A DNA stretch of 64,000 bases from Candidatus Omnitrophota bacterium (GCA_022710715.1 JAKLGJ010000003.1:358558-422557), one strand, 5' to 3'; counted from the first letter of the stretch, positions 16,132 through 40,368 are shown. Made by a program: numbers and translations. The notes: generated by a model from the letters alone, not told the origin.

Positions 16132-16139
16132 GGGAAAGT

Positions 16140-16532
16140 TTATTCCAGCGGTTTGCGGGGTTGGATCGTTCCTTTTTGCACCCCGTCGAGAAATTTATCC
16201 AGGTACTGATCCGCTTCCTGCAGACTGGCGAACATCTGCGGCGTAAGCACCTTCATCGTTTCAAAAACCAGCTGCACCTTAGGCTGCATATTCACCAGAG
16301 CCACTGTCCCGCCGCGCTCCTCAATGGCGAGCTTGATCCGGAATACCGCGCTCAAACCCATGCTGCTGATATAGGTCACCTGGCTCATGTCCAGCACCAG
16401 CGCCCGGGCAGCGGGGATCACCGTTTTAACCCTGTCTTCGAACTGCTGATAGGTCTGCGTATTGATTTCGCCCTTCGGGGTCAGCTGATAAATACCTTTC
16501 TCATGCTCCGCGATCGTAATATCGAATGCCAT
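16140..16532 (-). CDS. STAS-domain anti-sigma-factor antagonist (SpoIIAA/RsbV-like)
   Basis: 130 aa. Phospho-serine motif region YISSMGLSAV. It sits 8 nt upstream of the RsbW-like gene. Confidence 0.8.
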   Translation of the reverse strand: MAFDITIAEHEKGIYQLTPKGEINTQTYQQFEDRVKTVIPAARALVLDMSQVTYISSMGLSAVFRIKLAIEERGGTVALVNMQPKVQLVFETMKVLTPQMFASLQEADQYLDKFLDGVQKGTIQPRKPLE

Positions 16533-16541
16533 AACCTCTCC

Positions 16542-18091: not shown

Positions 18092-19654
18092 TTAAAGCAA
18101 ATCCGTCCTGACATAATAGATCTGTCGGCCCAGAGGTTTCCGGGTATAATGCTCAAGCATAAAGCCGACCAGTCGCTTATACCCGGAGGCAGAGATCAGT
18201 TTTTTCTGATACAGCTCAAGGAGAAAGTCTTTGTGTTGATACCGGCATTGCACCACTGCCGGCCGGCGCTCCAGGACCTGCGTAACCAGATCCTGCCGGA
18301 CAACGTCATCCCGCACGATCTTGAAATTCCCGGCAAAATAATACTGCCAGGCGGAATAAAGCCTGGTAGTGTCGCGGGCAAAGATCGGATGCAACGGCAT
18401 AATGACCAGACAGGAATCCCCGGCGCAATACTGCATCAAGCGTGCGATGGTCCGCTCATCCTGGAAATAATTATCTTTATGGCACGTCCACAAATAAGCG
18501 GCGTTGGGGATCAGCAACGCACCTCCCAGTATCCCCGCCAGCAATGCGCGAGCGGATCGCGACTTCACCCGCTCCATATACGCCGGCACATCCATGGCGC
18601 AAACAGCGATGGCGCACATAAAAAACCAGAAAGACAGGTAATAGCCGGTGTTCACCGTCGAGGTGGTAGTCAACGAGCTGACCGTGCTCAAGCAGAAAGC
18701 CAGCAGAACGATCAGCGACTGATGGTCGCGGCGGCTGCGGGAACGTTGCCACAGCAGATACGCTCCCCACCCTCCGGCTGCTGCGATAAGCAGCGGAAAG
18801 ACAACCTGGAAAACCACGATCTGACGGTTGAAGCCGAACACCCAGAAGAAAAATTCCCGCAGAATCCCGCGGCTGACGAGTATGGAAACCAGCGGGACTA
18901 TCCCCGCGCATACACCGCAGATATACGCCGCGACCTTCTTCCAGCGGTCTTCGGTCCCGCCCAGAAATACGGCGAATAACGGCAGAAAGAACAGAAGGTA
19001 TTGTTTGATCATGAATGAAGCGGCCAGAGCAAACGCGATCCCGGCAAGAAAGCTCGGGGTAATCCTTTTTCCCGGAATATCCAGGCAGAACCAGACTGTC
19101 GCCAGCAAAAACAGACTCATCAGGCTATCCGGCCGCAGGCACAGGAAACGCGCAAAGATCGCCACGCTGGAAAGCGCCAGCAGATAGATCGATACTCCGG
19201 CTTGCCGGCCCCAGGCTCTGCGGGCGATCTGCCAGCCCAGAGACGCATTCGCCGCAAAGATCACTCCCTGCGCCAGACGACTGATCGGGAATACCGCTGC
19301 AGTGGCGGGTGAATGCCGGACTGCCGGCTCCAGCAGGATCCAGAAAAACGGCGAATGGTGCTGCCAGAAATCCTTAAAAGGGATCTGTCCCTGCGACATC
19401 AACCAGGCCAGATGTAAATGCACGGCTTCGTCGTGATCCAGCTGCGCGATCAACGCCCAGATCAACAGTATGCCCAGGTTAATCGCAACCAAAGGCGCCG
19501 CGGACAACGAAGCGTTTTTCCTCAAACGCGCGTATGCCCATAACCCGCAGATAGCGGCGCACACGACAAAAAAGAACAGGTTGATCGATGAACCGAAACG
19601 CACCCCTAACTCAAACAGCATAGGCTTCTCCGGGTTTGACCTGCCAGAGATCAT
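18092..19654 (-). CDS. Polytopic membrane protein, GT-C fold glycosyltransferase-like (ArnT/PMT-like)
   Basis: About 10 TM helices in the N-terminal two-thirds, plus a soluble C-terminal domain. A DHDEA motif sits in the first loop. The true start may be the Met at 19621; the ORF overlaps the upstream gene by 11-44 nt. Confidence 0.4.
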   Translation of the reverse strand: MISGRSNPEKPMLFELGVRFGSSINLFFFVVCAAICGLWAYARLRKNASLSAAPLVAINLGILLIWALIAQLDHDEAVHLHLAWLMSQGQIPFKDFWQHHSPFFWILLEPAVRHSPATAAVFPISRLAQGVIFAANASLGWQIARRAWGRQAGVSIYLLALSSVAIFARFLCLRPDSLMSLFLLATVWFCLDIPGKRITPSFLAGIAFALAASFMIKQYLLFFLPLFAVFLGGTEDRWKKVAAYICGVCAGIVPLVSILVSRGILREFFFWVFGFNRQIVVFQVVFPLLIAAAGGWGAYLLWQRSRSRRDHQSLIVLLAFCLSTVSSLTTTSTVNTGYYLSFWFFMCAIAVCAMDVPAYMERVKSRSARALLAGILGGALLIPNAAYLWTCHKDNYFQDERTIARLMQYCAGDSCLVIMPLHPIFARDTTRLYSAWQYYFAGNFKIVRDDVVRQDLVTQVLERRPAVVQCRYQHKDFLLELYQKKLISASGYKRLVGFMLEHYTRKPLGRQIYYVRTDLL

Positions 19655-21011
19655 GGCCGGCCCCGAGAATATTCTCCGCCGCCAGTAAACCGGTGAGCAC
19701 CGAATGATCCATACTGTTATAATGAAACATCCCGAACCTGCCGATAGACTGGAGGTTGGCGAATCCGGACAGATAGCATTTAAGCTCCGCGAGGATACGC
19801 TCGTATCCCAGAGCGTAAACCGGATAGGCTTTGGGCACCCTGACCACTAACGCATCCTGGATCTGCGCCGGCCGGGCCAGCTTGATGGTTTCCAGTTCCC
19901 GTCCGGCCAATGCGATCAGAGCGGCATCGCTTTGAGACCAGAAATCGTCGGCCTCGTCGCAGAAATATTCCATGCCCAGCGAACTGGTATGCGCGTCGGC
20001 CAGCAACGCCGGGCTCCACTGGCGGAAATTCTGTATCCGGGCGACTTTGACCTCCTGCGAATGGACATAGATCCAATTATCCCGAACCAGGTCTTTTTTC
20101 TTGACGATAACATACACCAGGATCAGGCTCCGGTAACGCAATTTGCCGCACATCTCCAGGAGCTGGCGGTCAGGCAGCGGATCCAGTCTCCAGAGCAGAT
20201 CGGTAATGGGCATACTCGAACAGTAATCGCTGCCCTGATGCTCGACAACAGTGCCGGTGAGACGATCCTGGCAAACAACCGAAGTGATCCTGCGCTGCGC
20301 GTGGCGCACACGCAAGACTTCGTGATTAAGCTGCAGCTGCCCTCCCTGCCGGCTGAATTCCGAAGCGGCAGCCTCATACATCATCCCGGCGCCCAGACGC
20401 GGGTAATAGAACTCGCTGATCAGCGAGGCCACGGCATGGCCGCGATTCGCCAGTAAAGCGTTGCGTAAAGCGACCGGCAATGACATCCCCGGAATACGCT
20501 GCCCGGCCACATCCGCGGAGAGCTGTTCGCCGGAAAGTCCCCAGACTTTCTCGGTATAATCCTTGAAGAAAATATCATAGAGTTTCCGGCCGAAACGGTT
20601 GGAGACCCAGTCGGAAAAAGTCGTTTCCTGCTCACGGCGGGCCGAGAGGCGGCTGTAAAGGAAACTCAACACGATGATCAGTGAATGGAAGAAACCCATG
20701 CGGGCAATCACGTCGGGAATGGAGATGGGGTATTTCAGGAAGATGTCCCGGTAATAGATCCTGGACTGCCGGGGAATGCTCAAAAAATCATCCTTGAGCA
20801 ATCCTCTCCACCAGTCCAGCACCTGTTTGTTCTTGGTGTAGAAACGATGACCGCCGATATCGAAACCATATCCTTTGTACCGGACCGTCCGGCTGATCCC
20901 CCCTACGTGCGCTTCCTGTTCCAGGATCACGGTCTCAACCCGGTTTTCGCTCAAGCGGTGGCCGGCCGCGAGACCTGCCGGTCCTGCGCCGATAATCACG
21001 GTCTTTTTCAT
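19611..21011 (-). CDS. NAD(P)/FAD-dependent oxidoreductase (amine-oxidase / phytoene-desaturase-like Rossmann)
   Basis: N-terminal dinucleotide-binding motif VIIGAGPAGLAAGHRL..E..ILE....GG. 466 aa. Confidence 0.6.
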   Translation of the reverse strand: MKKTVIIGAGPAGLAAGHRLSENRVETVILEQEAHVGGISRTVRYKGYGFDIGGHRFYTKNKQVLDWWRGLLKDDFLSIPRQSRIYYRDIFLKYPISIPDVIARMGFFHSLIIVLSFLYSRLSARREQETTFSDWVSNRFGRKLYDIFFKDYTEKVWGLSGEQLSADVAGQRIPGMSLPVALRNALLANRGHAVASLISEFYYPRLGAGMMYEAAASEFSRQGGQLQLNHEVLRVRHAQRRITSVVCQDRLTGTVVEHQGSDYCSSMPITDLLWRLDPLPDRQLLEMCGKLRYRSLILVYVIVKKKDLVRDNWIYVHSQEVKVARIQNFRQWSPALLADAHTSSLGMEYFCDEADDFWSQSDAALIALAGRELETIKLARPAQIQDALVVRVPKAYPVYALGYERILAELKCYLSGFANLQSIGRFGMFHYNSMDHSVLTGLLAAENILGAGHDLWQVKPGEAYAV

Positions 21012-21120
21012 ACTCTTATACTACCCAATAAGCGGGCTTCTGACAAGCAGATTTTGGTCAAAAAGAAAACGCCGGCTGTTCAAGCCGGCGCTGATTCAAC
21101 ACGCGGATCACGCTACAGAT

Positions 21121-24100
21121 TTAGTTTCCTGCATTCTCTTTCTGCTTCTCGTCAAAGGCCTGGAAGAACTCCAGCAGGTCATTGTGTCCGACGAGCTGCA
21201 ACTGACCGTCTTTGAGCTCATAGGCGTCGGCACCGACCGAGAACTGGTCGAATGCGCCCATGTCCGTTGAAGTAAGCGGATGGTAGAAATACACCGATCC
21301 GATGGTAGAACTGAACTGATAGGTATCCAGATCAGCCACATTCGTCACTACCGGCTCATAAGCCATAATATCGCCGACAGGAGCGATAAACTCTTCCTCC
21401 TCCTCGACCGGCTCGGGTTCAGGAATGACCGGCTCTTCTTCATCGGGAATGTCGTTGAAATAAACGATGCCGGGAGCGGCATACACGGTAATAGCGTCCG
21501 GCGTGGTCTGCTCACGAACGCTTCCGGTCAACGCCGCGCTGACGCCTTCGATCTCGCCGTATGATATCAGGTACAGAGCCCCTTCGCCGGTAATGAGCAC
21601 GTCGAGCGGATTGTCCGTGGTGCCGATGGAGCTTTCGGAATAAATGATCTCATAATCCGGATATTCGCCGGTATACGAATAGCTGCCGCCATAGATATAC
21701 ACGGGACCGGCGCTGGTAATATGCGCTCCTTCGATATCGCCGGCAATGATCGATCCTCCGGCGATCAGGTACAGCCCGGACGCCGCGCCGTTAATCCCGG
21801 CGTTAAGAATGATATCCCCGGCAGCGTAAAGAGTCTCCAGGTTATAGTATGCAGCAAGGCCGGTTTCAGGAGTTTCTACGGCGATATCCCCTGCGGTGGA
21901 ACGAATGCTGATCCCGTCAAGCCCGTCGTCGTCGCTGTACAGATACGCGCCGAACGCGGGTTCCTCTGCGTCCCCGCAGAGAATGATTTCGCCGCTAAAG
22001 ACGATGTCGCCGGCCGATTGAAGCGAGAAATATTCTGCGGTCAGCGCAGGCATCCCGTCGCCGGTATCGCTGTACAGGCTGCCGTAGCCGTTAAGGTTTT
22101 CATCCGCGTGCAAAACGATCTCCTGCGCCTCCAGGTTACTGTACAGGTACAGATCGCCCGCGGAATACAGATAAATATATTCGGTTCTCGGCTCGAGATC
22201 GTAAACGGTCAGGGTTTCTTCCAGGGTGGAGAAAATTGAGATGGATAACGGTTCCGCATCTTCAACCGGCGTATACAGCTCTAACGTCGCGCTTGCCTCA
22301 TCCAGCGTCAGATAGAACGATCCATCCGCGCCTTCGCTGACGTAGAAATCATTGGCCCCCTGGAAGGTGTGGCGGAAACCGACCAATTCGAGATACTCGC
22401 CGGCAAAGCGCAGCTGGCCTGATCCATCCTGATCGCTGTCGGCAATGGCAGTGATGGAATCACCCATCAGGCTGTTATACGAAATCAAATCTCCCTGCGC
22501 CTGCAGGCTAAGACCGCCGAAGGTTTCAAACGGGATCTGCGCGTTTTCTGCTATGGCTTCGGAGCGCACCGGGAAATCATAACCGTCCACATCGATCTCG
22601 ATATCTCCCCCGGCGACCACGCTTACCGCTCCCGCCTGGGCTGTGGCTGACGCCGCAAGAGCTACTGCGCCCTGGCCGGTGGCCTGCGCCATTGAATACA
22701 CCTGGGATGCGCTTAACACGCTGAAATCTCCGCCTGCAGAAATCTCCAGCGGACCGCTGACAGCCGCAGCCGTATCCATGGCGTAGGCGTACGCCGTAGA
22801 ATCCAGCCCGGAAACCAGGTCGATAATGAAGCTGCCGACAGCCGAAACCAGGATCTCGCCCGCAGTGGCATCGGCGGTGTCGCTGGCCGGCACGTCCCCG
22901 CCGACATAAGAAGTACCTGCGCTGGCCAGGGTATACACGTGAGCGCTGTTAAAATTAATAGACCCGTTGGTGAACAATCCCATATCTCCGGAAACCGCCG
23001 TTGCTACCGATCCGCCCATGGCTGAAGCCGAAGAATAAACCGAAGATTCGCCGGCGATGGAAATCCCGCTCTCCTCGCTGAAAGAACCGGCGTCCAGGAC
23101 TACTTCGCCGCTGGTCGCTGCCGCAGCGCCCTCGCCCCAGGAAAGCGCGCTGGCCGCGGAATAAATGCTGCTGATGTTGTCCATCCCGGAATCAAGGTAA
23201 ATGCCCATTGCCAGGACGCCTACGTCGCCGGAGGTTGCGCCGGCATCTCCGGAAGCCTCGGCAACAGCCGAGGAATAAAGGCTGCCGGCGATCCCGACCG
23301 TGCCCTCTTCGGCGAACAAAGTCACGTCGCCGGAGAACGCTTCCGCGGAACCGTTGCCATAAGCCGTAGCGCTGGAATTGATGGTTTGATCGAGCTCGAT
23401 AGCGCCGGTCAGAGCGGTCACATCCACGTCGCCGGACCGGGCTGTCGCCTGGTTGAAAGCGTCTGCGGACGCCGAGGTGTACGCTTCTGCGCCGTTAAAG
23501 AGCTCCACGCTGCCGGCTTCGATAAGGATATCGCCGGACTCGGCGGTCGAATTATAGGAAACATCCGCGATAGCGCGGGTATTGGGATCAACGCCGTCGG
23601 AACTCAATGTCCCCGCGGCAATCAGGCTGATGTCGCCGGAATAGGCTACTGCTTCGTCTCCCTCTCCGGTTGAGGCTTCTGCCAGGGATGAGAGGAATCC
23701 TTCGTACAGCGAGATCGAGCCGCTGGCGCTTTCCAGGCTCACGTCCGAAGCGTACGCGTATGCGTAAGCGTCGCCTTCGGCGGTTGCCCAGGAAGTGAAT
23801 GATGCGGTCGCCTCATATTCGGGATTGCCCTGGGCAGTGATCCCGTTGTAACCGTATACGCTCACGCTGCCGGCGTAAGCGTAGGCCTGCGGGTATTCGC
23901 CGCCGGAGGCATAGGCTTCGGCGCGGCTGTTGAGGTCCGGAGACCCGAGCAGGCTGAAAAGACCGTAGCAGGTAATATCGATATTCCCGGTAGAAGCGTA
24001 GGCGTATTCCCGGGCATAAGCAGCGGCATTGGACTGCGCCGGGGTATAGGTCAATTGCATATCGCCGCTGGAATACAAGGCAACGTCGCCTGCGGTCAGG

Positions 24101-27100
24101 CTCACCGAATCCGCTTCCACCACTTCGCCGTAGAGCGAAGCCTCGGAATAGATCGAAGCGCCGATGCCGTTCAATGCGCCGTAGGCCGTGATCCAGAGAT
24201 CGCCGGATTCAGCTTCCAGGGTACCGGTGCCGGCGACCGAAGCGATCGAATATACCGAAAATTCGGAAAGGGTATAATTGCCGTTGATCATCAGGTTCAG
24301 ATCGCCGGAATAAGCCTGGGCATCGCTTGCGGAAGCGATTGCCGAGGAATAGAATGCGCAGGTCTGGTCCACTGATCCGGCTTCGATGTTCACCGAACCG
24401 GAAGAAGCCCGGGCGTACTCGCTGCCCTCGGCTTGCGCGGACGAATAAATATCCTGATTGACGTCCAGGAAATTAGAAGCATCAATGGTTACGTTGCCCG
24501 CGGTGGCGTACGAATAGGTCCCGCCCAGGGCCTGGGCGTTGCTGTAAACGTAACATTCGTTCAGATAAACGTCGTAGCCGGCAAGATTGACGTTGCCCGC
24601 GGTCACGCTGGTGTTCAATGCGGGATATTCGGAAATGACTTCGGAATTGGCGTAATAGACCCGCAGGGTCTGCCCGGCATAGATCGTCACATCGCCGGTA
24701 ACAGCCTGAAGCAGGTTCGGGAAGGTTCCGTCGCCGCTGGAATAGGCTTCCGCCGTGGAAACAGCGGCGTTCAGGTTGACCGATCTATACCAGCTGTGCA
24801 CGTCGATATCGTCAGCGGTGGCATACGCCTCCCCTGCGTCCAAACGGACATCCGCGGAAGCGTTGGACTGCGCCGTGGAAGGTATCTCGATATCGCCGTC
24901 CTGGGAGGCTACGGTAATCCTGCCGGAGACCGATTCCGCTCTCTGGTAGGCGTAGGTCCGGGCCTCGGAATTGAGGTACTGTTCGGAAAGGGTGATATCT
25001 CCGCCGGCGTCGATGGTTATGTCTCCGGCCAGGCCGTAAGCCTGGGCAGCTTCTCCCTGCGCCGAGGTGTCCGCGTACACGTGTGAGCCGTTGGAAAGAG
25101 CGATCGCGCCGCCGGCGTCGATCATTACCGCCAGATACGACCATTCATAATTGTTGTAATCGTAATATTCTGCTCCCGCGTAGGCCTGGGACAACGATCC
25201 GGGCTCGTTGGGCATGCTGGTCTGGGAGTCGGAGGAAGAATACACGTCGGTCATGCTCAAGTCGATATTCCCGCTGTCCGCGGAAAGAATTACGCTCGAG
25301 GAATTGGCCAGGGCCCGGGAGCCGGCGGAGGCGTGCGCGTACGAGTAAACATCTGCGCCGTATCCTGATCCAACCGAAGATATCCCGGCATTGCCGGAAA
25401 GGGTAACCGAGCCGCTGGTGGCGATAGCCGTGGAACCGGACAGGCCGTTATACACATTCGCATCGGCCGAGGAAAAGATCTGAGAGCCTTCGATATTGTT
25501 CAACAGTCCGCCGGCGCTGACGCTCACATTACCGGAAGTCGCAGTTGCGGTTTCCGATCCCGACGCGCGGGCTTGAGAGGAAATGTTCGCCCAATCCAGG
25601 GAGATGTTGCCGCCGGCGATCAGGCTCACCGCTCCGGAAACAGCGGAATTGTCGTACGCCGGACCGGATCCGGATGCATACGAAGAAATGTTGACGCCGT
25701 AATTAAAGGTAATCGCGCCGCCGGCATCCAGGGTGACATCTCCGGAGACCGCATTCTGCACCGGCTCGCCTTGGCCGCCACCCACTGTCGAACTGATGCT
25801 CACCTGATTGTCAACCAGGATATCCCCGCCTGCGGACAGATAGATCGATCCGCCCGCAGCATCGGTGAAAACATCGTTGTGAACAGTAAGGCCGGCCATT
25901 GCCTGCACGATAATATTGCCGCCGGCGTTATACATGCCGTCCGCATATTCGTCGGGATGAACAATCTGCAGATCGCGGTCATTGGAGATATAGATATCGC
26001 CGGAGCCGAGGTTCTCCGCGGCGACAGCCTGCACGTTCAAAGCCGCATCGATGCCGCTGGCCGCGGAAAGCATCGCGGCGCCTGCTGAAACCCGGCCGGT
26101 TCCCGGCTGTATCAACGTCTGACTGTAGATCTCGAAACCGGAAAGCGCGCTGGCGTACACCCTCACATCGTCAATAGCGCCTTCAGTAAGACGCGACCTG
26201 GCGCCGAAACCGCCGATCCAGAAACTCGCGCCCGTATCGACCGTGCCTTCGGGAACCGCGAATTCGCTGCCGTACTTGACGTCATCGTTGAATATGTAGA
26301 GGCTGCCTTCCGTGCCGTCGCGCACCATGGATACCTGATACCAGTTATTGTCATTAATCGCTATGGCGCTGTTGTCCATATCGTTATTCACCCAGCTCTG
26401 CAGGGAACCGTTCAAGGTCTCCAGCGCGTAACCGGTGGTGTAGAGCGGGCTCAAAGAAGCGCCCAACAATCCCACATTCTTGTCGCGCAGCTGGGTTCCG
26501 CGATACCAGCACAACAGGGTAAACGGCTCCGCGCCGAAGCCGAAATCAGTGCCGATGTTGAAATAGTCGTTGATCCCGTCAAAATAGAGCGCCTGGCCAT
26601 ATATGCCTTCCGGAACGATATCCGGGGTACCGCTGGCGTAAGCGGAATAACCGTTGCCGCTGACGTCCTGGGCATAATAATAGGAATAATACTGGTCGAA
26701 ATTCCAGTAAGCGCGCAAACCGTATTCTTCCACTTCCAGGTTACGGCGGATAATCGCGCCGTTATCCGCCCTCAAATAGACCGTTGCCAAATCAGGAGCG
26801 ACGATATCGGCCAGGGTATTCAGGATGATCCCGTTCTGTCCCTGGGCCTCCAGATACACATCGCCTTCGGAAATGATGCCATACCGCACCCGTATATCCC
26901 CGGCAGCGTATATAGCCGTTTCGGTCTGTGCGGCATAATTCTCCGCTACCAGCACCACCAGGTCTTGGTCGTTATACAGATAAATGCCGCCATATCCTTC
27001 ATTATACGCTACCAGCTTATTGACGGAAATTGCCAGGCCTTCCTCTATATTATCACCGATACCGCCATATGCTTCCAGATAGAGCTCATCCGCTTCAATG

Positions 27101-28911
27101 CAAACCCCTTCATCGCCCTGCAATAATTGTCCGGAAGAAGTCAAAACCACCAGGCCGGGAGAATAGATCTCCTGGATATAAAGCGGCGCCGAATCCTGCT
27201 CGATCCAGATATCGCCTGCGGAAGATTCCGGGTTGATCGTAGCCCGGACATAGCCGACATTGGTCAATATGGGGTTGGCCATGGTTCCGATACCGGAACC
27301 GGCCCGCATATTAAGGAAAGCTGTCCCTGTTTCTGAAGTGGCGGAAATTACATATTCTCCGGCATTGTAAATCGCGCCAATGCCCGGATCATAGGTAGTG
27401 TCCCATTCATACCAGAAATATTCTTCGCCTTCGGAAAAACGCTCGTGATCGGCGTAAAGATTGAGGGTGGAATTGTAACCGAGGAAAATGTCGCCGGTGA
27501 TGGTGATATCTTGCCAGGCATCAACCGTGACTGTGGTGTATTCACCGATGGTACCGCTATACTCGTTGGTGGCAGGGTCTAATAATGCATTACCGGGGGT
27601 AAATCCCGGAGGCGCCCGGCCGTTTAAAATGCCGTAAAAGCCCAATTGGGCGAAAGCGTCTACCCGCGCGACGCCGCCGTTACCGGAAACCGCGCCTGCG
27701 GAAAAATCTATTACTGCGTTCTTATTCACGAAAGTGTTGCCGTTTTTGGAATCGACCAGGATCCGGCCGCCGTTCCCGGCCAAACCGACTGCCTGCGCTT
27801 CCGTAACGCTGTTTTCATCCAGAACCGTCAAGGTATCGCTGACAATACTGATCTCTCCGGCTGTGCCCTGCTCCAGAGCATTGGCGGAAATGATACCCTG
27901 CTGCAGAATTGTTGCGGCTTCCAGGGCTATTTTGCCGCCATCCGGGCTGGTCGCGCTCAAAGCATCGGCTACGATCCTGCCTTCCGGGGCATTGGTAATC
28001 CCGGCATCGCTTACCTTAATATGTACTTGTGCAGCTTCCAGGGTACCGCTGTTGACTACTGGCGCCCCTTCCGCTACCAGTTCGATCACCCCGTCCTTTT
28101 CCACCAGAGAGGTTACTTTCACCAAACCGGTGTTATTGATGGCGTAATCGAAAACGCGATTGAGCACTTTAGCGGTCAAAATAACTTTGCCGCCTTGAGC
28201 CAGGATGGTGCCGCTATTCTTGACCGCGGAATCGATCCTCCGGCCATCCGGTCCGAATAACTCTTCCTGCACAGCCTGATCGATCGCTACGGAAATGGCG
28301 TTGGAATCTTCCAGCGACAAAGTCATCTTTTCACCGGAAGCCAGGACCACGGTGCCCAGATCAGCCTGGATCACCATTCGGTTATCCACTGCGTGTCCCA
28401 GCAGACAGACATAACCGCCGGCCTGCGCGGTGATCGTGCCCTGATTGATGATGTATCCGGCTTTACCGGCTTTGCTGAAAACGTAATTGCCTTTCAGGAA
28501 ATCTTCATTGGAAATGTTCAAGGTCGAAGCGACCAATCCGGCAACATCAACCTGCGAACCCGGTCCGAAAACAATCCCGTTGGGGTTGATCAGGAATACT
28601 TTTCCATTGGCGCTCAATGAACCCAGAATGCTGGAAGGATCACCGCCAACCACGCGGTTCAGCGCTACCGCGCTGGCAGAAGGCTGCGCGAAACGCACTG
28701 CTTCCTGCGCGGCAATATTGAAACTGTTGTAATCCACAATGAGTTTATCGGAAGGGGTAGTGACGGTCAGGGAATCGGCTTGAGAACGATCAAAGGTTGC
28801 GCTGCCGGCAACCACATTCTCGCCTTCAGGCAAGGCATAAACAAAAGAACAGCAACTTAAAAGGATGCTGGTTGCTGCTATCAGTATTCTTACATGGGTT
28901 TGTTTCGGCAT
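21121..28911 (-). CDS. Giant two-partner-secretion exoprotein (TpsA/filamentous-haemagglutinin-like, 2596 aa) with an N-terminal TPS domain, an internal LamG/concanavalin-like domain, and a long Tyr/Ala/Ser/Gly-rich beta-helical repeat region
   Basis: Signal peptide, then a TPS domain with ALNRV....NPNGIVFG (aa ~30-300). LamG-like block YGQALYFDGINDYFNIG...CWYRG...WYQVSMVRDG..SLYIFND...FWIGG...IDDVRVYASALS (aa ~745-930). It is followed by about 1500 aa of degenerate ~38-aa repeats (consensus ~[SA]GD[VI].[LV].A.G.I.L....YSSA.A.A). The C-terminus has an acidic linker (DEEEPVIPEPEPVEEEEEF) and a ~100-aa tail domain. Encoded immediately downstream of the tpsB gene. Confidence 0.8.
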   Translation of the reverse strand: MPKQTHVRILIAATSILLSCCSFVYALPEGENVVAGSATFDRSQADSLTVTTPSDKLIVDYNSFNIAAQEAVRFAQPSASAVALNRVVGGDPSSILGSLSANGKVFLINPNGIVFGPGSQVDVAGLVASTLNISNEDFLKGNYVFSKAGKAGYIINQGTITAQAGGYVCLLGHAVDNRMVIQADLGTVVLASGEKMTLSLEDSNAISVAIDQAVQEELFGPDGRRIDSAVKNSGTILAQGGKVILTAKVLNRVFDYAINNTGLVKVTSLVEKDGVIELVAEGAPVVNSGTLEAAQVHIKVSDAGITNAPEGRIVADALSATSPDGGKIALEAATILQQGIISANALEQGTAGEISIVSDTLTVLDENSVTEAQAVGLAGNGGRILVDSKNGNTFVNKNAVIDFSAGAVSGNGGVARVDAFAQLGFYGILNGRAPPGFTPGNALLDPATNEYSGTIGEYTTVTVDAWQDITITGDIFLGYNSTLNLYADHERFSEGEEYFWYEWDTTYDPGIGAIYNAGEYVISATSETGTAFLNMRAGSGIGTMANPILTNVGYVRATINPESSAGDIWIEQDSAPLYIQEIYSPGLVVLTSSGQLLQGDEGVCIEADELYLEAYGGIGDNIEEGLAISVNKLVAYNEGYGGIYLYNDQDLVVLVAENYAAQTETAIYAAGDIRVRYGIISEGDVYLEAQGQNGIILNTLADIVAPDLATVYLRADNGAIIRRNLEVEEYGLRAYWNFDQYYSYYYAQDVSGNGYSAYASGTPDIVPEGIYGQALYFDGINDYFNIGTDFGFGAEPFTLLCWYRGTQLRDKNVGLLGASLSPLYTTGYALETLNGSLQSWVNNDMDNSAIAINDNNWYQVSMVRDGTEGSLYIFNDDVKYGSEFAVPEGTVDTGASFWIGGFGARSRLTEGAIDDVRVYASALSGFEIYSQTLIQPGTGRVSAGAAMLSAASGIDAALNVQAVAAENLGSGDIYISNDRDLQIVHPDEYADGMYNAGGNIIVQAMAGLTVHNDVFTDAAGGSIYLSAGGDILVDNQVSISSTVGGGQGEPVQNAVSGDVTLDAGGAITFNYGVNISSYASGSGPAYDNSAVSGAVSLIAGGNISLDWANISSQARASGSETATATSGNVSVSAGGLLNNIEGSQIFSSADANVYNGLSGSTAIATSGSVTLSGNAGISSVGSGYGADVYSYAHASAGSRALANSSSVILSADSGNIDLSMTDVYSSSDSQTSMPNEPGSLSQAYAGAEYYDYNNYEWSYLAVMIDAGGAIALSNGSHVYADTSAQGEAAQAYGLAGDITIDAGGDITLSEQYLNSEARTYAYQRAESVSGRITVASQDGDIEIPSTAQSNASADVRLDAGEAYATADDIDVHSWYRSVNLNAAVSTAEAYSSGDGTFPNLLQAVTGDVTIYAGQTLRVYYANSEVISEYPALNTSVTAGNVNLAGYDVYLNECYVYSNAQALGGTYSYATAGNVTIDASNFLDVNQDIYSSAQAEGSEYARASSGSVNIEAGSVDQTCAFYSSAIASASDAQAYSGDLNLMINGNYTLSEFSVYSIASVAGTGTLEAESGDLWITAYGALNGIGASIYSEASLYGEVVEADSVSLTAGDVALYSSGDMQLTYTPAQSNAAAYAREYAYASTGNIDITCYGLFSLLGSPDLNSRAEAYASGGEYPQAYAYAGSVSVYGYNGITAQGNPEYEATASFTSWATAEGDAYAYAYASDVSLESASGSISLYEGFLSSLAEASTGEGDEAVAYSGDISLIAAGTLSSDGVDPNTRAIADVSYNSTAESGDILIEAGSVELFNGAEAYTSASADAFNQATARSGDVDVTALTGAIELDQTINSSATAYGNGSAEAFSGDVTLFAEEGTVGIAGSLYSSAVAEASGDAGATSGDVGVLAMGIYLDSGMDNISSIYSAASALSWGEGAAAATSGEVVLDAGSFSEESGISIAGESSVYSSASAMGGSVATAVSGDMGLFTNGSINFNSAHVYTLASAGTSYVGGDVPASDTADATAGEILVSAVGSFIIDLVSGLDSTAYAYAMDTAAAVSGPLEISAGGDFSVLSASQVYSMAQATGQGAVALAASATAQAGAVSVVAGGDIEIDVDGYDFPVRSEAIAENAQIPFETFGGLSLQAQGDLISYNSLMGDSITAIADSDQDGSGQLRFAGEYLELVGFRHTFQGANDFYVSEGADGSFYLTLDEASATLELYTPVEDAEPLSISIFSTLEETLTVYDLEPRTEYIYLYSAGDLYLYSNLEAQEIVLHADENLNGYGSLYSDTGDGMPALTAEYFSLQSAGDIVFSGEIILCGDAEEPAFGAYLYSDDDGLDGISIRSTAGDIAVETPETGLAAYYNLETLYAAGDIILNAGINGAASGLYLIAGGSIIAGDIEGAHITSAGPVYIYGGSYSYTGEYPDYEIIYSESSIGTTDNPLDVLITGEGALYLISYGEIEGVSAALTGSVREQTTPDAITVYAAPGIVYFNDIPDEEEPVIPEPEPVEEEEEFIAPVGDIMAYEPVVTNVADLDTYQFSSTIGSVYFYHPLTSTDMGAFDQFSVGADAYELKDGQLQLVGHNDLLEFFQAFDEKQKENAGN

Positions 28912-29027
28912 TCAGAGGATTGAATCACTGACCGTGGCTGTAAGTGACTCGCATTGAAAAGGTTTTCTTCCTACTCTAACTTATAAGTAAGTATACTCTA
29001 AAAGTGCTGATTTGTCAAGGAAAACCA

Positions 29028-30731
29028 TTAAAATTGCTTGGATGCTGAAAGCCAGGGATGGAAATGATCGCCGTCCGACGGTGTTTTAGCCAGCGGCCAG
29101 GCCAGGTCAACCCGCAGGGAAAAATCCTCCGGCAGGGTAAACCTGAAACCGAAGCCCACGCTGCGCAGAGTGCCGCGTTTCCTCTCTCCTGCCTGGGGAT
29201 TCTTCAGACGCACCCAGCCCAGATCATAGAAGAGCGCAGTTTTGAAAGCATTGTAGAATGTTGCTTTGGAGAAAGGAACCTTTAAATCTTTGGGACAGCA
29301 ATACGGCGGAATGATCCATTCCAAAGTGGAAGTGAATCCCTGATCCCCGACATATTCGCCGGAAGGATACCCTCTGACATTGGAGATGCCGCCAATCTGC
29401 ATCTGCTGGGAAGCAGCCAGGACATACGGGGAAAGCTGCAGCTGATTTTTCCACAAAACCGCGGTGGACCAGGGAGCTTTCTGCAAATGCAGCAGATTCG
29501 CGGAATGCTTAAGGAACTTGCCGCCTGCGCCGGTTCGCGAAGCGCGGCTGTCTTTAGCTTTCAAGCCGCCCATGATGCCGGAAAATCCAAAATCGGATTC
29601 GGGAGAAAAAATCGTTCTGCCGCCCCAGGGATTGGAGTAATCGATATCAAAACCCAGCTTCGCCCAACGCAACCGGTCCCGGCTCTGTTCGACTCCGGCC
29701 TGAAAGTTGAACGAATCCAGATAATCGAACCCGGTGTTGAACGTAACCGTCAGATCGTTGCGGCTTAACATTTCGTACATGCCGAATATTCCGTACATCC
29801 GGCTTTTTCCCCGGGACTGTAAAGCCCGGTATTCCTGACCCAGGGCAAGTTTCGAGTGGGTAGCGTAGACGCCCACTTTTGTCCGCGGATTCACCGGCGC
29901 CAGGTAACGAGCGGCAAGCAAACGATAATCTTCCGCATCAGCCAGCTGATACTGCAAAGAGAAAATGTCGTCAAAACCGAGCAGATTGTTATGGCTTAAG
30001 GTGGTGGAATAACGGTCTTTGCGCACATAACGGGAACCGTAATTGTCCCAATCCAGCCGGGCGTGCAGAGGCAATCGGTCGGTCACCTGCAAAACGATAT
30101 CCGTGGACCCGGGGTCTTTTCCCGGGACCAGCACTGCTTTGACCTGGCGGTCGGGATGCTCATTGAGCTTGGAGAGGCTTACCCGGAGATCGTCATAGTT
30201 GAACGGCTCTCCCCTTTCAAGGATGATCGCCTTGCGGATCAGAGCGGATCGAAAAAAACGGTTGCCCTTTACCTCCACATCCCCGGTAGTTCCCTCTATG
30301 GCCTTGATCTGCAGCTCGCCGCCTTCGATTTTCTGGGGAGGCAGGTAGCCGCGCGAGGTCACATACCCCTTACTGCGGTAAGCGTCGGTAATCAGATCGA
30401 CCACTTTCTGCATATCCGCTAAAGAAATCTCTTTGTTCTCGAACGGAGCCACGATATCCGCGATTTCCATCTGGCTTAAGAGAGTAACGCCGGTAACAGT
30501 GATCTTCTTGACGAAAGCCTTTTGATCTTTGGAAGGCAACGGCTGTGAAACTACCGGCTGCTCTTCTATGACCGGAGCCGCCGGTTCCTGTTCAATGCGT
30601 TCCCGCAGAGCTTTCTCCTGCTCGATCTGACGTTCCTCCTGCTGGACTTTCTCCGCCTGCTGGGCAAGAACCAACGAAGGGAATAACAACGTCATAGAGA
30701 TGATCACTATGCCGATCTTTGATCTGTTCAT
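29028..30731 (-). CDS. ShlB/FhaC/HecB-family TpsB outer-membrane transporter (POTRA domains plus 16-strand barrel)
   Basis: Signal peptide. POTRA region ITVTGVTLLSQMEI...YRSKGYVTSRGYLPPQKIEGGELQIKAIEGTTGDVEVKGN. A C-terminal barrel has alternating hydrophobic residues and ends SASKQF. Confidence 0.85.
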   Translation of the reverse strand: MNRSKIGIVIISMTLLFPSLVLAQQAEKVQQEERQIEQEKALRERIEQEPAAPVIEEQPVVSQPLPSKDQKAFVKKITVTGVTLLSQMEIADIVAPFENKEISLADMQKVVDLITDAYRSKGYVTSRGYLPPQKIEGGELQIKAIEGTTGDVEVKGNRFFRSALIRKAIILERGEPFNYDDLRVSLSKLNEHPDRQVKAVLVPGKDPGSTDIVLQVTDRLPLHARLDWDNYGSRYVRKDRYSTTLSHNNLLGFDDIFSLQYQLADAEDYRLLAARYLAPVNPRTKVGVYATHSKLALGQEYRALQSRGKSRMYGIFGMYEMLSRNDLTVTFNTGFDYLDSFNFQAGVEQSRDRLRWAKLGFDIDYSNPWGGRTIFSPESDFGFSGIMGGLKAKDSRASRTGAGGKFLKHSANLLHLQKAPWSTAVLWKNQLQLSPYVLAASQQMQIGGISNVRGYPSGEYVGDQGFTSTLEWIIPPYCCPKDLKVPFSKATFYNAFKTALFYDLGWVRLKNPQAGERKRGTLRSVGFGFRFTLPEDFSLRVDLAWPLAKTPSDGDHFHPWLSASKQF

Positions 30732-30925: not shown

Positions 30926-31663
30926 ATGTTCCTCTTTATCCGGCTGGTACTGGCGCATTTCCTGGGAGATTTCCCCTTTCAGTTCGACACCATTTACAAA
31001 CTGAAGTTCCAGGGGATCAAAGGAATCATCCCGCATGTACTGATCATTGCCGGCTGCAGCCTGTTGCTCTCCTGGCCTTATCTCAACCTGCCGCTGATGT
31101 GGGTCTTTATTGCGTTTGTCACCGCCGTACATTTGATCGAAGATTCCATCAAACTGAATTTCGGGACTAAAAAGTTCAGCTTCTGGGCATATATCGTCGA
31201 CCAACTGGTACATGTGGGCACTATCGCGCTTTTGCTGCTTACCGATCTCAAGCATCTTCCCCCTCCGGCAAACCAGGAAAACGTCCTGGTGCGGATCTAT
31301 ACCAATAACCATCTGATGCTTTTCATCATCGCGCTGATCGTGGCCACGTATAACGGGCATTTCCTGATCCGCTGCTTCAAAGACACCTTTTTTACCCGAG
31401 TAAATCAATGTTATATGCACGAAAAATGGTTCGGGATGGTAGAACGGGGAATGATCGTAGCGCTCTTCTTCGCTCGGGTGCCTCTTTTGATCCTGCTGGC
31501 AGTTAGCCTGTTGCTGCGGCCGCTGGCCTACCGCCTGCTCAAAAAACCTCTCTCTTTACACTCCTGCTTCATATCCAGAGCGGATACCGCGTTGAGCTGG
31601 ACGGTGGGAATGCTCACCGGCATAGCCCTCTGGCTACTTCAAACCCACTACCCGGTATATTGA
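30926..31663 (+). CDS. DUF3307-family polytopic membrane protein
   Basis: The only clear plus-strand gene in this region. N-terminal LAHFLGDFPFQ motif typical of DUF3307. 6-7 TM helices. Confidence 0.45.
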   Translation: MFLFIRLVLAHFLGDFPFQFDTIYKLKFQGIKGIIPHVLIIAGCSLLLSWPYLNLPLMWVFIAFVTAVHLIEDSIKLNFGTKKFSFWAYIVDQLVHVGTIALLLLTDLKHLPPPANQENVLVRIYTNNHLMLFIIALIVATYNGHFLIRCFKDTFFTRVNQCYMHEKWFGMVERGMIVALFFARVPLLILLAVSLLLRPLAYRLLKKPLSLHSCFISRADTALSWTVGMLTGIALWLLQTHYPVY

Positions 31664-33883
31664 AATAGGTTTGGCCTTACCCTTGACCGAGATCGGCTCG
31701 AGTTTTTCCACGTTGATCTGGTCCTTGACCTGCTCGTAGGTACCCTCGCTTATGATGATCTCGTCTTTGCTCGCCGCCGCGCAAAGCCGGGCGCCCAGGT
31801 TCACATTATCGCCGATGACCGTGTAATCCATGCGCGCGGCAGACCCCATGTTCCCCACGACCATATCCCCGGTATTGATCCCGATCCCGATCTGCAAAGC
31901 CTGTTTCTTCTCCTGATCCCACTTTGTCTTGAGCCCCTTCATCTTTTCCTGTATCTCGATGGCGGTGCGCACCGCCATCAAAGCGTGGTTGTTGACATGC
32001 TGATTGCCCGGCGCCCCGAAGAACGCCATCAGCTCATCTCCTACGAATTTATCCAGCGTGCCGTTATACTTGAAAACCACATCCACCTGCTGGGTGAGGA
32101 TCTCGTTGAGCATGGCCACGACTTCTTCGGGTTGATGCGATTCCGAAAACGAAGTGAATCCTCTGACGTCGGAGAAGATGACCGTGAGCATCCTGCGCTC
32201 CCCGCCCAGCTTCAGGCGGGAAGGATCATCGAGCAACTCGGTGATGACCGCGTCGGAAAGATAATGGCCGAAGGCGTGTTTGATCCAGAGCTTCTCTTTC
32301 TCTTCGGTAAAGAAACGGAAGCTGGTGATGGACATGAAACCGAAGACGACGATGCCCGTCGGCCCCACCAGGTCGATCCAGAGCCCGGCAGTGATAAAAA
32401 GATATAAAGCCAGCAGGAAAAAACCCACCGCATACCCCAGAACGATAAGCAGGCTCTTCCAGAGTTTAAGCAGCGAGCTGAACCCTACCACCAGAGCGGT
32501 GAACAGAAAGATCAGTATGCGCGGCAGCGCCGACTGCCGGACGATGAAACGCTCGGTGAGAATGGTATTGATCAGGTTGGAGTGCGTGCCGACCATGGGA
32601 TAATGGTCCTGCAGCGGGATCGGACGCAGGTCATGCGTGCCGGTGGCGGTCAGGCCGACGATACAGATCTTATCCCTGACTATGGACGCAAGCAGATCTT
32701 TAAGCTTCTGCGCGTCCTTGCGCCAGTAAGCAAGCTCTTTTTCGGTCAACGCCTCTCCCGGCTGTTCCAGTCGCCGGCGGTTCTGCTGCAGCTCCAGGAT
32801 ATCGCCATACGATACATGCTTGAAGGTGGAATCCCAGGTGCCGTGCCAGTTCACCAGCATGCATCCCTGTTCATCCACCGGGATAACGATATCCTTGATC
32901 CCGGGATGAAAACGCGCTCCTTTAAAAATGATCCGGTTCCTGCCGATTTCCACCTTCTTTACTTCCAACCGGTCAAGCAGCGCGGCAACGGTCAGCTGGG
33001 GCAGGATATTGTCATGGTAGCGCACGAATAACGGGACCTTGCGGGTGACCCCGTCCAGATCAGGATCGGCATTGATGAACCCGCTTCCTTTCATCCTCTC
33101 CGCGAAAAGACGGATAGGGACATTCAATCTTCCGGACTCTTTTTTGAACGGCCAGCGGTCAACGGGGATGTCCGCGGCGAATCTTTTCACGAAAAAATCC
33201 ACCAGTTTTTGATGTTCCACTTCCCCCTGGACGATAATCTCTTCGGCGTCAAACAAAAACCACCCGTAGGTTTTCTCCATCTGATCCAGGATATCCTCAA
33301 ACGAACTGTCCGGCTGCTTGCGCAGCAGCTCGCGCGCTACTTCTTCAAGCAGCATTCTCCTGGCTTCAGGAAGCTTTTCTCCCACCATCTTGATATCGAT
33401 GCCCAGATGCGCGGCGGCTTCCCGCGCGGAGAGATCGATTTTCTTCAGGAGCAATTCTTTCAGTTTGGGGAACGGGAAAGCTTTGACTTCGTCGAAATAA
33501 AACGGCAGGTAGGTTATGGCAGAACGGTAGATAGCGTCGTTGAACAGCGCGTCCTGCTGCGGGTCATCCTTGAATTCTTCGCTGAAAATGACATCCCAGA
33601 GCACCTGCTTGGCGCCGCATTCTTTCAAGAAGGACGTCAACTGGGCGTGATAGCTCCTCGGCCAGGGCCATCTGCCTACTCGATCCAGACTTTTTTCGTC
33701 TATATCGATGTGCACGATCGGCCCCCGGGTAGGCATCGCCCCCCGAAGGATAAAACGCAGGTCTAACGCTTTGAGTTCAAGAATCTGGTAGGCCCTTGAC
33801 TGTAAGGAAAGCAGCAGCAGGCCCGCCACGCCGAGCGCAAAAGCAAGGCTGACCAGTAGTTTAATGCGGGTTTTCTTATTCAC
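31634..33883 (-). CDS. CHASE2-sensor class III adenylate/guanylate cyclase
   Basis: N-terminal TM, then a CHASE2 region (ICIVGLTATGTHDLRPIPL..YPMVG) and a TM bundle. The C-terminal cyclase domain has TVIFSDVRGFTSFSE ... FVGDELMAFFGAP ... GINTGDMVVGNMG. Confidence 0.85.
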   Translation of the reverse strand: MNKKTRIKLLVSLAFALGVAGLLLLSLQSRAYQILELKALDLRFILRGAMPTRGPIVHIDIDEKSLDRVGRWPWPRSYHAQLTSFLKECGAKQVLWDVIFSEEFKDDPQQDALFNDAIYRSAITYLPFYFDEVKAFPFPKLKELLLKKIDLSAREAAAHLGIDIKMVGEKLPEARRMLLEEVARELLRKQPDSSFEDILDQMEKTYGWFLFDAEEIIVQGEVEHQKLVDFFVKRFAADIPVDRWPFKKESGRLNVPIRLFAERMKGSGFINADPDLDGVTRKVPLFVRYHDNILPQLTVAALLDRLEVKKVEIGRNRIIFKGARFHPGIKDIVIPVDEQGCMLVNWHGTWDSTFKHVSYGDILELQQNRRRLEQPGEALTEKELAYWRKDAQKLKDLLASIVRDKICIVGLTATGTHDLRPIPLQDHYPMVGTHSNLINTILTERFIVRQSALPRILIFLFTALVVGFSSLLKLWKSLLIVLGYAVGFFLLALYLFITAGLWIDLVGPTGIVVFGFMSITSFRFFTEEKEKLWIKHAFGHYLSDAVITELLDDPSRLKLGGERRMLTVIFSDVRGFTSFSESHQPEEVVAMLNEILTQQVDVVFKYNGTLDKFVGDELMAFFGAPGNQHVNNHALMAVRTAIEIQEKMKGLKTKWDQEKKQALQIGIGINTGDMVVGNMGSAARMDYTVIGDNVNLGARLCAAASKDEIIISEGTYEQVKDQINVEKLEPISVKGKAKPISIYRVVGLK

Positions 33884-33907
33884 TACTCTCTCTAGCCTTC
33901 TATGCCA

Positions 33908-34945
33908 TTAGAAACGGTAATAGGTGGTCAAGGCGATCAGTGAGCCGGAATAACGCTCTGAAGGTTCGTTAGAGCGATTCTGCCGATACGTATAGCTCAA
34001 ACCGAAGGTCGTGGCTTTATTATACGCGTAATAGAGCGCGGTATTGATCAGATAGGTCTTGTCGCGCTCGTGCGCGCCGGCGTCATTGATCAACGTGCGG
34101 CTGCGGAAATCACGATACTGCCGGGAAGCCGAAGCATACCCCGAAAACTTATCGTTAAAAATATGGGTGAACGCGGCGCCCAGCCGGTATGAATCATAAT
34201 CATAGTAATTCAGGTATTTATCGTTGGAGTTATTGTTGAAATACTGGAAAGTGAGCTTCAGCATGTCTTTGGTGAAATATTTACCGATCTCGTAATCGAC
34301 GGTATTGCGCACATCCTTGCGGTTCTTGGTGGTGACCAGAGCGCTGGTGGTGCGGTTATACCTCCTGGAATAATCGCGGTAGCTCAATCCATAGCCAAGG
34401 GTTTGGAACATCTTATTCCCCAGCATATGCTTGAGCTTGCCGCCCAGTTCATGCTCGGTGTAATCATCGACTCCGGTCTGGATATATTCGATGGAGTCAA
34501 AAGCGTAGCCGCCGGACAGATTCAGATTTTTTGTCAACGCGTGATCGATCTCGCCGCTGACGCCGTTACGGATGACATCGAGCTTGCTTTCTCCGGCGTA
34601 CATCAGGTTCATCACTTCATAACTCGCCGTTACCCCGGTTTTCTCGGAAAGAGAGCTGACGAACGTCCCGCGCAGGAACTGCTGGGTATACATATCCCCT
34701 TCCCGGCGGCTATCCAGCCAGGTATTGTTATCATAACCAACGGAGACCGCGGCCAGCCAGCCGACCATGCCTTTGTCGATAAGCGTCTGTTTCGGCTCAA
34801 GATAGATCTTCTTATGCGGCTCCAGATACATCTGTTTCGTGCGCGGAGTCACTTCCTCATCGGGCTTATCCTGCGCGAAACCGGCGGCAGGAATAAGCGC
34901 CAACCCCAGGATTACCATTAGCGACTTACGATACATGCTCTTCAT
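33908..34945 (-). CDS. Putative outer-membrane beta-barrel protein
   Basis: Signal peptide (LALIPAAGFAQD). Alternating amphipathic strands rich in Y/T/S. The C-terminal residue is aromatic (YYRF). Confidence 0.5.
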   Translation of the reverse strand: MKSMYRKSLMVILGLALIPAAGFAQDKPDEEVTPRTKQMYLEPHKKIYLEPKQTLIDKGMVGWLAAVSVGYDNNTWLDSRREGDMYTQQFLRGTFVSSLSEKTGVTASYEVMNLMYAGESKLDVIRNGVSGEIDHALTKNLNLSGGYAFDSIEYIQTGVDDYTEHELGGKLKHMLGNKMFQTLGYGLSYRDYSRRYNRTTSALVTTKNRKDVRNTVDYEIGKYFTKDMLKLTFQYFNNNSNDKYLNYYDYDSYRLGAAFTHIFNDKFSGYASASRQYRDFRSRTLINDAGAHERDKTYLINTALYYAYNKATTFGLSYTYRQNRSNEPSERYSGSLIALTTYYRF

Positions 34946-34970
34946 TGTCCCTCCTTAGAAAAATCCGGGT

Positions 34971-35804: not shown

Positions 35805-35864
35805 GCCTGCCTCTCCCTTTTATACGCCTATTAGCGACATTCCATCCAACGTCATCGATCTACT

Positions 35865-40328: not shown

Positions 40329-40368
40329 GGCATCCTCGAATAGGAACGTTCTTGTTAACGCCCGGCTC

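Follow-up and report, generated by a model that had tools for sequence, protein, structure and literature searches.

Does the exoprotein of a two-partner secretion (TPS) locus in an uncultivated Omnitrophota bacterium act as a surface adhesin or as a toxin, and by what means might it be kept on the cell? The question is raised by the gene pair tpsB-tpsA at positions 21121-30731 of a DNA stretch of 64,000 nucleotides (nt) from Candidatus Omnitrophota bacterium (GCA_022710715.1, JAKLGJ010000003.1:358558-422557), hereafter referred to as the window. Unless noted otherwise, coordinates are positions within the window and the features lie on its minus strand. We describe the gene pair, its domains, the anatomy of its repeats, their predicted solenoid fold, the distribution of a C-terminal module and the absence of toxin and immunity features. 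According to our analysis, TpsA is very likely a TPS-secreted, non-toxic, adhesin-like fibre. The fuller reading, namely a type Vb surface adhesin fibre that is not a toxin and that is held by its C-terminal module as a periplasmic anchor, appears probable to us.

The gene pair and its secretion module

Both open reading frames (ORFs) have the positions and lengths given in the original prediction, which was made from the DNA alone. tpsB (29028..30731) encodes an Omp85-family transporter of 567 amino acids (aa) with a signal peptide, a charged N-terminal segment, POTRA domains and a ShlB-type barrel; Pfam places POTRA_2 at aa 74-147 (E 2.1e-21) and ShlB at aa 208-530 (E 6.8e-24). tpsA (21121..28911) follows on the same strand after a spacer of 116 nt and, according to its ORF and translation, encodes an exoprotein of 2596 aa in which Pfam detects the TPS domain (PF05860). 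With the Omp85-family barrel and the ShlB-type POTRA domain in the adjacent transporter, the pair is the canonical two-partner secretion locus that had been predicted. It is a bona fide member of the type Vb (TPS) class and already carries this annotation as far as its N-terminal domain is concerned: NCBI lists the identical protein (P0001), from a Candidatus Omnitrophota metagenome-assembled genome (MAG), under the name 'filamentous hemagglutinin N-terminal domain-containing protein', and the relatives of TpsA that carry organism names are mostly from Omnitrophota as well. In all seven homologous loci examined, tpsB lies directly upstream of tpsA and encodes 567-570 aa.

A consensus scan found a promoter-like site (TTGACA-17-TATACT, matching at 11 of 12 positions; 28990..29018) in the tpsB-tpsA spacer, which hints at a separate transcription of tpsA. 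Near-consensus sigma-70-like sites are, however, no more numerous in the region than in shuffled sequence, and the site is a consensus match only, in a phylum whose promoters are uncharacterised. The tpsB-tpsA unit is closed by an intrinsic-terminator-like hairpin (21068..21092; 10-bp stem with 7 GC pairs, 5-nt loop and T-run) that begins 29 nt past the tpsA stop codon. Another promoter-like site from the same scan (21046..21018) lies between this hairpin and the next gene, which encodes a flavin adenine dinucleotide (FAD) oxidoreductase. Scans of the window for tRNAs and Rfam families returned no match.

TpsA begins with a putative Sec-type signal peptide (aa 1-26; 28834..28911) that was read by eye: a basic n-region and a hydrophobic core precede the site between VYA and LPEG (SCCSFVYA followed by LPEGENVV), and the (F/Y)ALPEGE junction is kept in homologues. 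The TPS secretion domain and its lineage-specific conserved extension occupy 27577..28755. PF05860 covers aa 53-292 (E 9.2e-34) and includes the claimed motif NPNGIVFG at aa 109-116; NCBIfam TIGR01901 (adhes_NPXG) also matches TpsA (E 1.2e-24). About 135 aa past the Pfam boundary lies the motif GILNGRAPPGF (aa 427-437; 27601..27633), which is kept in most Omnitrophota TpsA relatives whatever their passenger and suggests an extended secretion module of about 440 aa in this lineage. Many Omnitrophota TpsA proteins with unrelated passengers align only to the N-terminal 11-25% of the query, at 45-63% identity. In a region-by-region comparison of the query with 14 family members, which also underlies the further family identities given below, the TPS domain was 52-78% identical and the extension, up to GILNGRAPPG, 39-63% identical.

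The passenger: repeats, LamG module and lysine content

Downstream of the secretion module, TpsA carries the degenerate, Tyr-rich repeat array of the original prediction, with a period of about 34 instead of 38 aa and an extent of about 1100 instead of 1500 aa. A hidden Markov model (HMM) built from 14 units that were anchored on the SG[D/x][VI] motif detected 29 units from aa ~1020 to ~2120, strong neighbours being mostly 34 aa apart (range 29-40). The array of these ~29 Tyr/Ala/Ser-rich units (aa ~1021-2122; 22546..25851) shows the pattern SGD[VI]..L.AGG ... YSSA.A.A over some 1100 aa, within a beta-rich passenger of about 1500 aa. Across aa 401-2500 of TpsA, the composition is 7.2% Tyr, 13.8% Ala, 11.5% Ser and 11.7% Gly. 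The array is followed by the C-terminal part of the passenger (aa 2123-2489, ~360 aa; 21445..22545), which consists of different, AGDI-type repeats, is 28-65% identical across the family and ends in the conserved motif APGIVYFN; a PPGxVYFNG-type motif also precedes the linker in distant members.

Modelling with AlphaFold2 of aa 1745-2125, based on 12 orthologous or paralogous rows, yielded the beta-helical fold that had been suspected, in the form of an all-beta solenoid of high confidence (pLDDT 91.8, pTM 0.91). Each unit of the model comprises four strands: strand a (xAxAx) is followed by the SGD turn, strand b (VxLxA) by the GG turn, then come strand c (xIxL) and the long strand d (IYSSAxAxA), which often runs into strand a of the next unit. 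The alternating A.A.A pattern and the Tyr at a fixed position suggest that small residues point inward and that a Tyr ladder lines one face. A Foldseek search of the model against the PDB gave weak matches only (best E 0.026, TM <= 0.31), nearly all of them to beta-helix or solenoid proteins. Tapirin adhesins were among these, as were curli CsgA, SufD and the TPS domains of two adhesins (HMW1 and EtpA) and a hemophore (HxuA). Read at the level of its strands along the sequence, the model thus supports the prediction that the repeat region forms a beta-solenoid stalk. The three repeat segments are the most variable region of the family (22-63% identity), and one member of 1539 aa (P0011) lacks the Tyr-rich array altogether. 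The family follows a plan in which a constant N-terminal export module and a constant C-terminal module enclose a variable, expandable middle, and we posit that the repeats form a stalk that can vary in length by expansion.

A LamG-like insert had been predicted at aa ~745-930, and Pfam identifies a Laminin_G_3 (concanavalin-like) module at aa 778-928 (PF13385; 26128..26580). The match has an E-value of 2.7e-10 and scores 41 bits against a curated cut-off of 27.6, and it spans positions 1-150 of the 151 of the profile, i.e., essentially the full domain. The Pfam call is in keeping with weak sequence matches in the PDB, where this stretch hits LG domains of neurexin and agrin, and the module is 44-74% identical in the 14 family members. 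It may serve as the ligand-binding element of the fibre. The combination of a TPS domain with LamG was thought to be uncommon, which did not prove to be the case in this lineage: in precomputed annotations, 17 of the 120 best homologues (the query protein P0001 included) carry PF13385, and because these are mostly from Omnitrophota MAGs, the combination is recurrent there. Large Omnitrophota proteins bearing Laminin_G_3 have been proposed to be cell-adhesion factors (Seymour et al. 2023, PMC10066038).

The passenger is furthermore almost devoid of lysine, a feature that the original prediction passed over, as it did the terminator right after tpsA and the conserved neighbours. TpsA contains only 3 Lys among the 2169 residues of aa 398-2566 (21214..27720), compared with an average of 5.8% in 14 other proteins of the window (binomial P ~8e-52). 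The same segment has 1.8% Arg, a pI of 4.05 and a net charge of about -258. Within the C-terminal ~1700 aa, Lys occurs only in the C-terminal module (aa 2567, 2589 and 2591), and the module of the relatives typically ends in a KKKKK tail. Lysine is similarly scarce in the closest family (0-0.8% in P0002-P0012 and P0014, 1.5% in P0013), and some unrelated TpsA homologues, such as P0074, P0081 and P0102, are nearly Lys-free too. Candidate causes of this lysine desert are charge-dependent translocation, the avoidance of proteases and the avoidance of amine chemistry.

The C-terminal module and the proposed retention of the fibre

The passenger is joined by an acidic Pro/Glu linker, DEEEPVIPEPEPVEEEEEF (aa 2490-2508; 21388..21444), found where the original prediction had noted one, to a conserved module of about 85 aa at the extreme C-terminus (aa 2508-2596; 21124..21390). 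At this position, the linkers of homologues are Pro-rich, of low complexity and variable in length, and linker and module together are 35-67% identical within the family. The module follows the pattern ...Q.N.F...GxVYFYHPLT..D..AFD.F.L..GAYE.I.G.L.L.GH..LL.FF..F..K.K and has a basic tail. It is free of cysteine, as are the whole of aa 2313-2596 and the consensus of alignment A1, which consists of 28 C-terminal tails and in which Y36, H37, P38 and Y57 are nearly invariant.

The C-terminal domain had been described as having no evident homologue, a statement that has to be revised. A profile of A1, searched against 1.84 billion representative proteins, found 339 protein clusters at E <= 1e-3 and 243 at E <= 1e-10, and 50 of the 120 best homologues of TpsA end in ...GxVYFYHPLT..D.SAFD.F.L..GAYEFI.G.L.L.GH.GLLP.LE..KKKK. 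In many of these carriers the similarity to the query is confined to the N-terminal 11-25%, and the passenger is an unrelated one that contains Ig-like, MBG, GLUG, beta-helix or FG-GAP domains. Among the 150 profile matches listed, the module lies within ~20 residues of the C-terminus in 149; the one other match (P0241), to a low-complexity repeat protein, is spurious. All retrieved members with an evidently complete N-terminus have a signal peptide and an NPNG-type TPS motif, and short members without a start or signal look like contig-truncated fragments. When the C-terminal 88 aa were used as the query, a word-indexed homology search gave no match, which reflects a limit of the index, given the clusters found by the exhaustive profile search. 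No match to the module was found among the profiles of Pfam, NCBIfam and the PDB. A scan of species-representative genomes with a consensus peptide located the module at eight loci, six in Omnitrophota MAGs and two in genomes binned as 'Deltaproteobacteria' and 'Planctomycetia', whose contigs of 4-6 kb may be mis-binned.

At one homologous locus (L003, 4728..18370 in its own coordinates), two tpsA genes stand behind a single tpsB and encode P0184 (1116 aa, no LamG match listed) and P0009 (2789 aa, with LamG). Both products end in the module, which fits a function tied to the shared transporter, and the one transporter may serve two substrates. We also considered a classical tripartite C-terminal sorting signal of the PEP-CTERM or LPXTG type (motif, transmembrane helix and basic tail) and rejected it, as the stretch of 45 residues from YHPLT to the basic tail is an acidic, amphipathic one and not a transmembrane helix.

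Of the roles that can be imagined for the module, we favour, tentatively, that of a periplasmic stopper or anchor on the TpsB side. It is constant among varying passengers, its position at the extreme C-terminus is nearly universal in the matches listed, and in the members inspected it sits behind a flexible Pro/Glu-rich linker that might span the pore. The two TpsA proteins behind one TpsB share it, and it holds the basic residues that the passenger avoids; the confinement of Lys to the module would fit a domain for which passage across the outer membrane is not required. There is also precedent in HMW1 and HxuA, whose C-termini remain periplasmic and lock each protein into its transporter (PMC5422565).

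We propose the following course of events. TpsA would be exported by Sec, the POTRA domains of TpsB would recognise its N-terminal TPS domain, and the chain would thread its way through the barrel of TpsB. Once outside the cell, it would fold into a long, very acidic and nearly lysine-free beta-solenoid fibre, the beta-helix being nucleated by the TPS domain. These steps are those of the type Vb pathway (Sec, POTRA recognition, barrel threading and extracellular beta-helix folding) as reviewed in PMC5422565. The LamG module, about one third along the fibre, would be the likely ligand- or glycan-binding element, and the ~34-aa repeats would provide an expandable stalk. Behind its flexible linker, the C-terminal module would remain in the periplasm as a stopper or anchor and the fibre would stay attached to the cell, possibly so that these cells, which are ultra-small and probably depend on a host, can adhere to a surface or to a partner cell.

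Several points weigh against this reading. We infer secretion, surface retention, the adhesin role, glycan binding and the anchor role alike. LamG folds also serve protein-protein contacts, and glycan binding is only one possible function of the module in TpsA. The closest full-length homologue (P0002) carries no PF13385 flag in the precomputed table, although the region aligns at 49% identity. Most other TpsA homologues contain 1-3% Lys, which makes the lysine argument a weak one for the wider family. The AlphaFold2 model of the C-terminal module, a helix-hairpin-helix-hairpin-helix arrangement, is of low confidence (pLDDT 64.6), and a Foldseek search with it found no structural neighbour (best E 1.8, which is meaningless). 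The C-terminal periplasmic anchors of HMW1 and HxuA (Buscher et al. 2006; reviewed in PMC5422565) contain a disulfide-bonded loop and depend on the disulfide; the module described here is cysteine-free, comprises ~85 aa and combines a YFYHPLT core with a basic tail. Its anatomy would be equally compatible with an extracellular tip, with an element of quality control or with a role in membrane binding.

Alternative explanations concern both the nature of the protein and the role of its C-terminus. Long repetitive genes are error-prone in metagenome assemblies, and the repeat region might accordingly be a collapsed or expanded artefact of sequencing or assembly. Tandem Repeats Finder detected no DNA-level tandem repeat in tpsA apart from a 24-nt hexamer run, and in the protein sequence the likeness between units is only a degenerate one; four contigs of several sources, the longest of 1.62 Mb, carry the identical protein, and a 59%-identical homologue of 2598 aa is collinear with TpsA from end to end. 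These findings rule out a collapse or expansion in assembly, leave the artefact with a negligible probability and allow us to treat the repeats as real. A CdiA-like contact-dependent inhibition (CDI) toxin or a ShlA-type cytolysin acting on prey or host cells might be expected in Omnitrophota, which are suspected to be predators or parasites (PMC10066038; bioRxiv 10.1101/2023.11.21.568195), and TPS systems do deliver toxins and cytolysins (PMC5422565). In TpsA, however, Pfam recognised no toxin or pretoxin family at E <= 0.1, PT-VENN included, and the VENN motif is absent from the sequence. The C-terminus is conserved over the 339 clusters and at the family identities given above, where a toxin would call for a polymorphic one. 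The 110-nt gap past tpsA contains no complete ORF of at least 60 aa; it is mostly taken up by the terminator-like hairpin and the promoter-like site, and with the hairpin placed right after tpsA there is no room for an immunity gene. The following gene encodes a FAD amine-oxidase-family protein of 466 aa, as the original prediction had it, and in the seven homologous loci no conserved small ORF follows tpsA and the genes downstream are unrelated housekeeping or metabolic ones. Neither a pretoxin with a polymorphic toxin domain nor a downstream immunity gene, the hallmarks of CDI, is thus present; we regard a toxin as very improbable and share the earlier preference for an adhesin, a role that we put forward by inference.

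The remaining alternatives accept the fibre and assign its C-terminal module another place or task. It could be exported to the distal tip of the fibre, comparable to the mature C-terminal domain of Bordetella FHA, and act there as a shared element for binding or self-association to which LamG and the repeats are accessory. Its conservation across passengers, its terminal position and the flexible linker before it would be in line with such a tip. A binding tip would be expected to vary with its target, yet it is the passengers that vary and the module that is constant; the sharing of the module by two TpsA proteins served by one TpsB and its basic residues, avoided in the passenger, likewise speak against the tip, which we consider unlikely. 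Even less likely, in our view, is a periplasmic regulatory or quality-control element like the FhaB prodomain, so that the fibre would be released or matured through degradation of the module. The two agree in layout, with a Pro-rich linker followed by a conserved extreme C-terminus, but the module has no sequence similarity to any family described in Pfam or NCBIfam and no dedicated protease gene is adjacent. The FhaB prodomain comprises ~1200 aa, and the module, with its ~85 aa, is far smaller. On the other side of the balance, PMC5422565 cites Noel et al. 2012 for the prodomain staying intracellular.

Extending the anchor reading to the lineage, we suggest, as a doubtful but possible scenario, that Omnitrophota (together with a few MAGs binned elsewhere) possess a type Vb subtype of their own. 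In this scenario, the ~440-aa TPS module and the ~85-aa cysteine-free C-terminal module (YFYHPLT...KKKK) would form a constant chassis on which passengers are swapped, with the C-terminal module as a periplasmic stopper of a new, disulfide-free kind that ties the fibre to the cell via TpsB and the lysine-free, Tyr-laddered LamG solenoid as an organelle for host attachment.

Neighbouring genes and known systems

The gene next to tpsA encodes the FAD oxidoreductase of the PRK07208/amine-oxidase family (466 aa; 19611..21011; NCBIfam NF005548, E 2e-163) and overlaps by 44 nt with a gene for a PMT_2-like GT-C membrane glycosyltransferase (18092..19654), both families having been assigned with Pfam. 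The pair forms a transcription unit of its own, set apart from tpsA by the terminator-like hairpin and the promoter-like site, and is followed by GreA. It also follows tpsA at the P0005, P0008 and P0013 loci, and at the P0014 locus a PMT_2 gene lies just upstream of tpsB. The flavoprotein and the GT-C enzyme may glycosylate the Ser/Thr/Tyr-rich passenger or the envelope, which we offer as a lead.

On the other side, between the TPS pair and an upstream operon (31634..37604), lies a DUF3307 gene of opposite orientation. This apparent operon is headed by a second, 'orphan' TpsB-like gene (POTRA_2 and ShlB, 579 aa; 35865..37604) and continues with genes for a FecR-domain protein with weak similarity to Leptospira Lsa33/LipL45 (34971..35804), a Tyr-rich putative beta-barrel of 345 aa (33908..34945) and a CHASE2 adenylate/guanylate cyclase (31634..33883); it contains no TpsA. 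The FecR protein might be the substrate of the orphan transporter or the partner of the CHASE2 sensor. The four-gene block is also present at locus L015 and in part at L013 and the P0013 locus, and a FecR-CHASE2 pairing is known from the Burkholderia 'BiofilmReg' operon as well (PMC5192318). The order of the whole neighbourhood recurs at the P0005 and P0013 loci and in part at the P0010 and P0008 loci, but not at the P0002, P0009 and P0014 loci. The block is syntenic at the P0005, P0010 and P0013 loci but missing at the last three; as shared ancestry explains the synteny equally well, a functional coupling of CHASE2/FecR to the TPS pair was rejected, and we treat these genes as syntenic neighbours and not as parts of the system.

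The window holds another FecR/CHASE2 set (13862..17516). It comprises a FecR-domain protein (16542..17516), two ORFs that, judged by eye, resemble a STAS-type anti-sigma-factor antagonist (130 aa; 16140..16532) and an anti-sigma kinase (139 aa; 15712..16131), and a CHASE2-SpoIIE (PP2C) phosphatase (13862..15715). The set resembles a partner-switching module whose input is extracytoplasmic and comes through CHASE2. Farther upstream of the TPS pair, two adjoining FGE-sulfatase (formylglycine-generating-enzyme-like) ORFs of 476 and 535 aa (39237..41976) have a listed overlap of ~300 nt, which probably means that the start codon of one of them is wrongly assigned.

Widespread and ultra-small, the uncultivated Omnitrophota are suspected of living on other cells, and published discussion of them centres on poorly annotated giant ORFs. 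Two-partner secretion in Omnitrophota found no mention in PMC10066038, in the Omnitrophota giant-protein preprints that were checked or in a narrow full-text search. The phylum carries a TPS exoprotein family with recognisable parts, which are LamG, a well-predicted solenoid stalk and a previously undescribed C-terminal module of ~340 clusters. For annotation, the module provides a new domain family for Pfam and NCBIfam and corrects the 'no homologue' label. We see the value of the locus in what it adds to Omnitrophota biology and to the question of TpsA retention, and not in a new kind of system.

The Laminin_G_3 giant ORFs of Omnitrophota (PMC10066038) share with TpsA the phylum, the Pfam module and a proposed role in cell-cell adhesion, but differ in being described with multiple predicted transmembrane helices and large predicted extracellular domains. 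CdiA/CdiB/CdiI systems resemble the locus in that they, too, secrete by the TPS route a filamentous protein of very large size whose C-terminal region is distinct; in TpsA this region is conserved instead of polymorphic, without VENN or pretoxin demarcation and without an immunity gene. Closest in design is the adhesin class of Bordetella FHA/FhaB-FhaC, HMW1 and EtpA, which likewise pairs a TpsB (POTRA domains and ShlB barrel) with a TpsA that has an NPNG TPS domain and a long beta-helical passenger of degenerate repeats. Only the TPS domain is detectably related, however, and the likeness to FhaB at the C-terminus, a Pro-rich segment before a conserved end, is one of layout only. The locus further differs from this class in the gene order (tpsB, then tpsA), in its origin from uncultivated Omnitrophota, and in a passenger with LamG, a 34-aa Tyr/Ala/Ser repeat and almost no Lys. 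Its C-terminal module, the 34-aa solenoid repeat, the lysine desert and the organisation of constant chassis and variable passenger match no described family. With the anchors of HMW1 and HxuA, the module has in common that it is a short domain closing a TpsA protein at its C-terminus, where it could hold the exoprotein on the transporter, and that its presence or absence distinguishes TpsA subfamilies. Since it has no conserved cysteine pair or disulfide loop, it is at most an analogue of that anchor type and not a member, and it may represent a second, disulfide-independent way for a TpsA protein to stay on the cell.

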